Below, piece by piece: positions 59,698 through 61,198 of a stretch of 64,000 nucleotides of DNA (position 1 is the first letter of the stretch; the number at the start of each line of letters is the position of its first letter). The notes below the pieces were generated by a model. That model saw only the letters and a list, made by a program, of their open reading frames with translations. It was not told the DNA's origin and searched no databases. A program made the position numbers and the translations under genes. Location: NCBI GenBank assembly GCA_950096895.1, contig CATNBF010000002.1:25086-89085 (forward strand). The letters are read 5' to 3'. This DNA is from an uncultured bacterium. Lineage in GTDB: Bacteria; Pseudomonadota; Alphaproteobacteria; Rs-D84.

Positions 59698-61198
59698 AAC
59701 TTGAGAGTTTGATCCTGGCTCAGAACGAACGCTGGCGGCAGGTCTTAGGCATGCAAGTCGAACGGGTGAAGCAGAGCTTGCTCTGTGGATCTAGTGGCGC
59801 ACGAGTGAGTAACGCGTGGGAAACTGCCCATCACTGGGGAATAACGTTTGGAAACGAACGCTAATACCGCATACGCCGGAAACGGGAAAGATTTATCGGT
59901 GATGGATGTGCCCGCGTTGGATTAGCTTGTTGGTGGGGTAACGGCCTACCAAGGCGATGATCCATAGCTGGTCTGAGAGGACGATCAGCCACGCTGGAAC
60001 TGAGACACGGTCCAGACTCCTACGGGAGGCAGCAGCTAAGAATATTGGGCAATGGAGGAAACTCTGACCCAGCCATGCCGCGTGAATGAAGAAGGCCTTC
60101 GGGTTGTAAAGTTCTTTTAGTCGTGAAGATGATGACAGTAGCGACAGAAAAAGCACCGGCTAACTTCGTGCCAGCAGCCGCGGTAATACGAAGGGTGCAA
60201 GCGTTGTTCGGATTTACTGGGCGTAAAGCGTCCGTAGGTGGTTTGTTAAGTCAGGGGTGAAATCCCGGGGCCCAACCCCGGAACTGCCTTTGATACTGGC
60301 AAGCTGGAGCGTGATAGAGGAAGATGGAATATCTGGTGTAGGGGTGAAATCCGTAGATATCAGATGGAACACCAATGGCGAAGGCAGTCTTCTGGATCAT
60401 TGCTGACACTGAGGGACGAAAGCGTGGGTAGCAAACAGAATTAGATACTCTGGTAGTCCACGCCCTAAACGATGCATGCTTGTTGTTGGTTCCCTTCGGG
60501 GTATCAGTGACGTAGCTAACGCGTTAAGCATGCCGCCTGGGGAGTACGATCGCAAGATTAAAACTTAAAGGAATTGACGGGGACCCGCACAAGCGGTGGA
60601 GTATGTTGTTTAATTCGATGCTACGCGAGAAACCTTACCGACCCTTGACATCTTGGTCGCGATTTCCAGAGATGGATTTCTTCAATTCGGTTGGACCAAA
60701 GACAGATGCTGCATGGCTGTCGTCAGCTCGTGTCGTGAGATGTTAGGTTAAGTCCTGCAACGAGCGCAACCCACGCCCTATGTTGCCAGCGGGTAATGCC
60801 GGGAACTCTTAGGGGACTGCCCGCGTCAAGCGGGAGGAAGGTGTGGATGACGTCAAGTCATCATGGTTCTTACGGGTCGGGCTACAAACGTACTACAATG
60901 GCGTCAACAATGGGTCGCAATGTCGCAAGGCAAAGCCAATCCTTAAAAGACGTCTCAGTTCAGATTGTCCTCTGCAACTCGAGGGCATGAAGCTGGAATC
61001 GCTAGTAATCGCTGATCAGAATGCAGCGGTGAATACGTTCCCGGGTCTTGTACACACCGCCTGTCAAACCATGAGAGTCGATTTCACCCGAAGTCGGTAG
61101 TTTAACGCAAGAGAACGCCGCCTACGGTGGGGTTGGTGATTGGGGTTAAGTCATAACAAGGTAGCAGTACCGGAAGGTGCGGCTGGATCACCTCCTTT
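59698..61198 (+). rRNA. rrs: 16S ribosomal RNA (divergent)
   Basis: Starts AACTTGAGAGTTTGATCCTGGCTCAG. Contains GTGCCAGCAGCCGCGGTAATAC. Ends GGCTGGATCACCTCCTTT. Confidence 0.95.

Follow-up and report, generated by a model that had tools for sequence, protein, structure and literature searches.

The 16S rRNA gene analyzed here is, with high confidence, the single and predicted-functional 16S of a Candidatus Enterousia species, and its unusual bases are best explained as fixed signatures of the lineage that originated through ordinary compensatory evolution. The gene was found full-length on the forward (+) strand, from 59697 to 61198 of a 64,000-nucleotide stretch of DNA (here called the window) located on contig 2 of a 41-contig assembly (998,742 bp, 93% complete). 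It matched the bacterial small-subunit rRNA family (Rfam RF00177) along model positions 1 to 1533, scoring 1526.3 bits (gathering threshold, 50), and was the only match to this family in the whole genome of ~1.0 Mb. Enterousia (Alphaproteobacteria, order Rs-D84) comprises uncultured gut bacteria with genomes of less than about 1 Mb (PMC12306168), and the window 16S was 96 to 99.5% identical to many Candidatus Enterousia loci, the threshold for the assignment being an identity of at least about 94.5% together with a genome of ~1 Mb. A sequence-only reading of this DNA had proposed that several covarying substitutions were real features of the lineage rather than errors, and it was partly confirmed. 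Its observation is real and mostly accurate, with the rarity of two items overstated and one pairing mis-assigned, and the combined reading of lineage features in a predicted-functional rRNA is supported in part, apparently holding on its main point. The bases that it had named are all in place (A at 60439, T at 60449, T at 61062, A at 61153, A at 61067, T at 61147, CTAAG at 60036 to 60040, and CTTAG at 59744 to 59748).

The gene belongs to an rRNA operon with the order 16S-tRNA-Ile-23S. The 16S-23S spacer (61199 to 61644) contains tRNA-Ile(GAU) alone (61283 to 61359, + strand; Rfam and ARAGORN), without tRNA-Ala, and is followed by the 23S rRNA gene (61645 to 64000, + strand; RF02541, 2148.8 bits), which is cut by the window end. 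A closed circular chromosome of a relative (Enterousia, 958,618 bp) has only a single 16S, whose states are those of the window gene. With one copy in the genome and one in the closed relative, a degenerate extra copy standing beside a canonical one, which the sequence-only reading had considered, was rejected, and the window gene, within an rrn operon and with no alternative canonical copy, is predicted to be the functional one. In the DNA preceding the 16S, a search for promoters found one promoter-like match, no better than shuffled sequence.

At the universal decoding positions, the gene has A1408, A1492, A1493 and U1498 unchanged (MAFFT alignment, E. coli rrsH numbering), and it also keeps the 3' end carrying the anti-Shine-Dalgarno, which reads GGATCACCTCCTTT. 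KsgA, RsmH and RsmE are all encoded in the genome, and the loss of decoding-center methyltransferases was therefore rejected as a correlate of the changes in helices h44 and h45. An rsmE-type gene for the 16S m3U1498 methyltransferase (PF04452) was located in the same window, at about 13093 to 13527. Since the decoding nucleotides, the anti-Shine-Dalgarno end and the three enzymes are all kept, decoding should work canonically, which points to a decoding center that works normally.

Pairing was read from the RF00177 covariance-model alignment, whereas E. coli numbering was taken from a MAFFT alignment to rrsH. This structural alignment places the positions as had been assigned from the sequence, with 786:796, 1404:1497 and 1409:1491 paired. 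The 5' strand of the decoding helix h44 (61059 to 61070, + strand) contains U1404 (61062), A1408 (61066) and A1409 (61067), and the 3' strand (61144 to 61157, + strand) contains U1491 (61147), A1492, A1493 and A1497 (61153), so that 1404:1497 is U:A and 1409:1491 is A:U, neither flagged as noncanonical. Both alignments agree here with the pairs and the four retained nucleotides originally described. The two pairs were present in every readable sequence of the Enterousia clade, defined as 16S genes at least 86% identical to that of the window. Across public genomes, A1497 was the partner of U1404 in 165 of 168 resolved cases (the remaining three were U.G), and U1491 accompanied A1409 in 194 of 194. 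With partners that follow one another so consistently, pairing at both positions is far beyond chance.

To place these states taxonomically, an exact 20-mer covering the 5' strand of h44 (U1404 plus A1409) was searched in 185,579 species genomes. The 83 stretches found came nearly all from gut metagenome bins (Candidatus Enterousia, Rickettsiales and Alphaproteobacteria), with 16S genes 89 to 99.5% identical to the window. U1404 without A1409 appeared in a further 118 stretches (Anaerolineae, Christensenellales, WOR-3, Saccharibacteria, Bdellovibrionota and others), giving about 200 U1404 matches in the 185,579 genomes, numbers that are not global frequencies because many bins lack an assembled 16S (only 15 of 41 relatives had one). 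Given these few matches, scattered over phyla, U1404 seems to be rare but polyphyletic. Many gut Clostridia and Christensenellales bins carry U1404:A1497 (loci L103, L110, L115, L116, L119, L127, L129 and others), among them UBA5489, which has been assigned to the reduced-genome gut family UBA1242 (PMC12306168); this hints at a recurrence of the pair in other reduced-genome gut lineages.

A1409 together with the canonical C1404 had at least 120 matches (Flavobacteriia, Sphingobacteriia, Planctomycetota, Microbacteriaceae, Mollicutes and others), so that A1409:U1491 is widespread among bacteria in nature; the description of the substituted positions as near-universal thus fails for 1409:1491. 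Lineages such as Flavobacteriia, Planctomycetota, Microbacteriaceae and Mollicutes have the same A:U pair and keep A1408, A1492 and A1493, with U1491 accompanying A1409 in 116 of 116 of the genomes listed, but they retain C1404:G1497, unlike Enterousia. It is the combination of U1404 and A1409 that is almost exclusive to the Enterousia clade; the cases found outside it were Entomospira and one Bdellovibrionales genome.

Other helices of the 16S were also modified. The 790-loop hairpin (h24; 60439 to 60449, + strand) is closed by A786 (60439) and U796 (60449) instead of the G:C that is upper-case in the Rfam consensus; the alignment leaves the pair unflagged, as canonical, in agreement with the A:U closing pair that had been proposed from G786A and C796U. 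A786:U796 was found in 71 of 73 clade members, while the sister families and three deep branches within the clade have G:C. Elsewhere the two bases gave at least 120 matches, including Fimbriimonadaceae and Chloroflexota.

Several changes had been overlooked by the sequence-only reading, namely, the 112.315 swap, A1510.G1525, G1050.U1208, the 23S change A1916C with the other 23S departures, and the mismatch to primers 805R/785R. G112.A315 is a near-invariant noncanonical pair adjoining a helix end, and in the window both halves are exchanged (G112A at 59804 and A315G at 59993, both + strand, from comparison with the clade and with other bacteria). In the clade it flips as a unit, with AG in 67 members, GA in 5 and never GG or AA, compared with 189 GA and 1 AG in the other bacteria, a set collected by motif searches and therefore a nonrandom sample, as in all such comparisons here. 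In h34, G1048A (60706, + strand) is compensated by C1209U (60868), giving A:U in 72 of 73 clade members, and 1048:1209 covaries among other bacteria as G:C, A:U, C:G and U:A. The neighboring C1208U (60867 to 60868 with C1209U, + strand, from clade versus other-bacteria counts) produces a G1050.U1208 wobble in 73 of 73 clade members, against G:C in 191 of 194 others.

The h45 hairpin (61162 to 61185, + strand) has a GGAA loop and an A1510.G1525 mismatch (61166/61181), flagged as noncanonical by Rfam and present in 69 of 69 clade members and in 0 of 186 other bacteria. In the predicted fold (-12 kcal/mol), it is an internal 1x1 mismatch and the hairpin still forms. KsgA, which methylates the loop of this helix, is still encoded. 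Two pairs next to the loop had been regarded as flipped from G:C to C:G, but CC-GGAA-GG is the Rfam consensus and the bacterial majority (within the set of 194 diverse bacteria, C:G in 135 of 187 at 1514:1521 and in 121 of 187 at 1515:1520), so that the difference exists only with respect to E. coli-like sequences.

For h5, the sequence-only reading had matched CTAAG with CTTAG near the 5' end as exact reverse complements. These substitutions do exist and are compensated, though in a different register. The 3' partner (60036 to 60040, + strand; Rfam, MAFFT and covariation) reads C358 U359 A360 A361 G362, where E. coli has TGGGG, and the 5' strand of h4/h5 (59743 to 59749, + strand; Rfam alignment) consists of U47, C48 to A51 (unpaired in the model), G52 and G53. 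The Rfam alignment gives U47:A361, G52.U359 and G53:C358, with 48 to 51 and 360 unpaired, a register that covaries across 190 diverse bacteria (47:361 is Watson-Crick in 178 of 190, and 52:359 shows five pair types). The 5-bp CTTAG/CTAAG duplex was rejected as the conserved pairing: 50:360 can pair in only 27 of 190 and 51:359 in 54 of 190, and its middle is unpaired in the Rfam model, so that the duplex amounts to a chance match displaced by one base from the true register (47:361, 52:359, 53:358). One Enterousia-like 16S in a bin labeled Chlamydiaceae (L029, CALGBW010000014.1) has TGGGG at 358 to 362 and the clade states elsewhere, and probably results from chimeric assembly of the rRNA.

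The closest parallel outside the clade was Entomospira nematocerorum, an insect-gut spirochete (NZ_CP118168.1), with the same h44 20-mer (U1404:A1497, A1409:U1491 and A1410:U1490) and, at 358 to 362, an identical CUAAG block, with U47:A361 and G53:C358. However, the pair at 52:359 is A:U in the spirochete and G.U in Enterousia, and the spirochete retains G786:C796 and C1510:G1525. As its 16S is only 74% identical overall to that of the window, the likeness is best regarded as convergence.

We weighed whether the substitutions could come from an assembly or binning artifact, either a chimeric or foreign rRNA operon on the contig or a decayed extra copy, since metagenome bins often contain misassembled rRNA operons. 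A few of the contigs that match do come from bins labeled Chlamydiaceae, Muribaculaceae, Paludibacteraceae and Saccharibacteria, and the different 358-to-362 block of L029 suggests occasional chimeras. However, the same states appear in about 70 independently assembled genomes of the Enterousia clade, from many hosts and including the circular long-read chromosome; the contig extends at least 25 kb past the 64-kb window; the Rfam score of the window 16S equals that of its relatives; and neither the genome nor the closed relative has a second 16S. An artifact fails on these tests and is extremely improbable. Because the states are common to about 70 independent genomes, among them a closed chromosome in which the 16S is single-copy, the substitutions are, from this comparative evidence, signatures of the lineage rather than errors or the remains of a decayed copy. 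The claim that they are real covarying features therefore stands, as they are common to the clade and located in the sole 16S, within an rrn operon.

The distribution over the order seems to indicate that the changes arose stepwise. One strand of a helix would mutate and its partner follow, the pair being restored or else tolerated as G.U or A.G. U1404:A1497 was found in every readable family of the order, including all six sister-family genomes, and A1409:U1491 in three of the four readable families (f4 and f5 have it, and f3 has C:G). The 47:361 pair alternates between C:G and U:A across sister families, and both partners always change together. A1510.G1525 and G1050.U1208 are common to every Enterousia-clade member, A786:U796 would have arisen later, within the clade, and the G112.A315 swap probably flipped more than once. 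Because each pair recurs in unrelated phyla, ordinary evolution is the preferred explanation. AT mutational pressure was not supported as the driver of the G:C-to-A:U direction of most swaps, as the G+C content is 48%.

The neighboring 23S gene has also diverged. Helix H69 (63414 to 63468) matches with a single mismatch, A1916C (63423, + strand), and its loop reads AACUCUAA. C1916 was found in 54 of the 61 family genomes in which H69 was assembled (A in the other 7) and was absent from all 6 sister-family genomes and from 84 diverse bacterial 23S genes, where the base is A. Counting the H69 change, 23 of the 883 conserved columns are altered in the window 23S; those 84 bacteria, which were gathered by motif and form a nonrandom sample, have a median of 1.5 such departures (90th percentile, 9.4; conserved meaning a consensus of at least 97% among them). 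Among the departures are G745A, U747G and A752C of the H35 loop (62376 to 62383), G2032A (63539), A1783U and A1789C (63297 and 63303), and C1967U (63474). Nearly all are common to the clade, and they are spread over the whole molecule, beyond the subunit interface. So many changes at conserved sites, clearer in the 23S, would fit the accelerated evolution of rRNA that lineages with reduced genomes are expected to show, which we attribute to the reduced genome and the single rrn operon.

An adaptive origin is the other explanation to be weighed. Under it, drug pockets and the subunit interface (h44, h45, the 790 loop, H69, the H35 loop and G2032) would have been remodeled, giving intrinsic insensitivity to the ribosome-targeting antibiotics of gut competitors or a retuned subunit association. 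Several of the changed sites do sit in drug pockets and at the interface: C1404-G1497 lines the hygromycin B site, where G1497 coordinates a drug-bound ion (PMC2910043; PMC10497419); the binding of aminoglycoside ring I is governed by 1409-1491 (PMC2916820); C796U confers slight pactamycin resistance in mouse 18S (PMC3439915); and the 23S adds G2032A and a rewritten H35 loop. The E. coli H69 mutants A1916G and the deletion of A1916 alter the same loop nucleotide of bridge B2a and are defective in 70S formation or fidelity, with A1916G impairing 70S formation (PMC1190176), yet the natural A-to-C change of Enterousia is tolerated and fixed in most of the family. On the other hand, every 16S pair is still Watson-Crick, the form that keeps most susceptibility in published mutants, and the same pairs turn up in numerous unrelated lineages that are not known to have any pressure in common. 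Within the genus, position 1916 varies and the 16S shows no corresponding change, and the 23S departures occur throughout rather than only at the interface. We therefore consider adaptation unlikely, and we give equally little credence to a coevolved set around the decoding center and bridges B2a and B2b (16S U1404:A1497, A1409:U1491, A786:U796 and A1510.G1525; 23S A1916C, the H35 loop and G2032A) that alters subunit association or gives insensitivity to multiple drugs. If it were true, such a set would imply a changed subunit association or an intrinsic insensitivity to natural ribosome inhibitors of the gut. A coupling of 1916 to the state of 1409:1491 was rejected, as 52 genomes with A1409 and C1404 keep A1916, and those members of the clade that carry A1916 do not differ from the rest in their 16S states.

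Regarding drug binding, the genotypes linked to resistance, A1408G or a non-Watson-Crick 1409-1491, were not found: the gene has A1408 and, at 1409:1491, a canonical A:U. Aminoglycoside MICs increase with mismatches at 1409-1491, but not with the near-isosteric U.G (PMC2916820). The nearest experimental analogue is the Trypanosoma mitochondrial A-site in bacterial chimeric ribosomes, with the same A-U at 1409-1491, where 6'-amino compounds are still active and mainly paromomycin is less so (PMC3101183). The Trypanosoma site also has 1406C-1495G and other changes, whereas U1406 and U1495 are unchanged in Enterousia. The suggestion in the sequence-only reading that the A:U pair may alter aminoglycoside susceptibility is thus plausible but weak, and, by analogy, susceptibility to 6'-amino aminoglycosides, with less to paromomycin, would be a lead only. 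For pactamycin, resistance changes at C795/C796 are known from Halobacterium halobium and from mouse 18S, the latter being the same C796U as in Enterousia (PMC3439915); in Enterousia it is compensated by G786A, which restores Watson-Crick pairing, and in mouse 18S C796U alone conferred only slight resistance. The binding of drugs that contact the swapped pairs may be modestly altered. Since A1409:U1491 is so common in nature, a decoding-site variant of this kind should not be taken to mark resistance unless tested.

Primers were matched in silico. Those with no mismatches were 27F, EUB338, 341F, 515F, 519R, 926R, 1100R and 1541R. Primers 806R, 1391R and 1392R showed one G.T mismatch each, 10 to 14 nucleotides from the 3' end; 805R showed two, one of them at the penultimate 3' base; and 1492R showed two to three, including a C.A 6 nucleotides from the 3' end, with the others near the 5' end. 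The mismatches previously described for 806R, 1392R and 1492R are therefore real (one, one, and two to three, respectively), but for 806R and 1392R they are unlikely to hide the lineage because they are single, internal or 5' proximal, and of the G.T type. The penultimate-base mismatch of 805R/785R is the more serious one. Underdetection would plausibly affect mainly V3-V4 (805R) and 27F-1492R surveys. Amplicon data obtained with 27F-338R did include Rs-D84 (PMC8224745).

As a secondary, practical effect, these results bear on how the group is detected. Primers 805R/785R (V3-V4) and 1492R (full length) fit poorly, whereas those for V1-V2 and V4 fit, and the combination of U1404 and A1409, almost clade specific among the 185,579 species genomes, could be used for probe design. 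More generally, the comparison provides a checked set of signature nucleotides for abundant, uncultured gut bacteria with reduced genomes, and the biology behind it is textbook compensatory change in rRNA helices, here in a little-studied clade.
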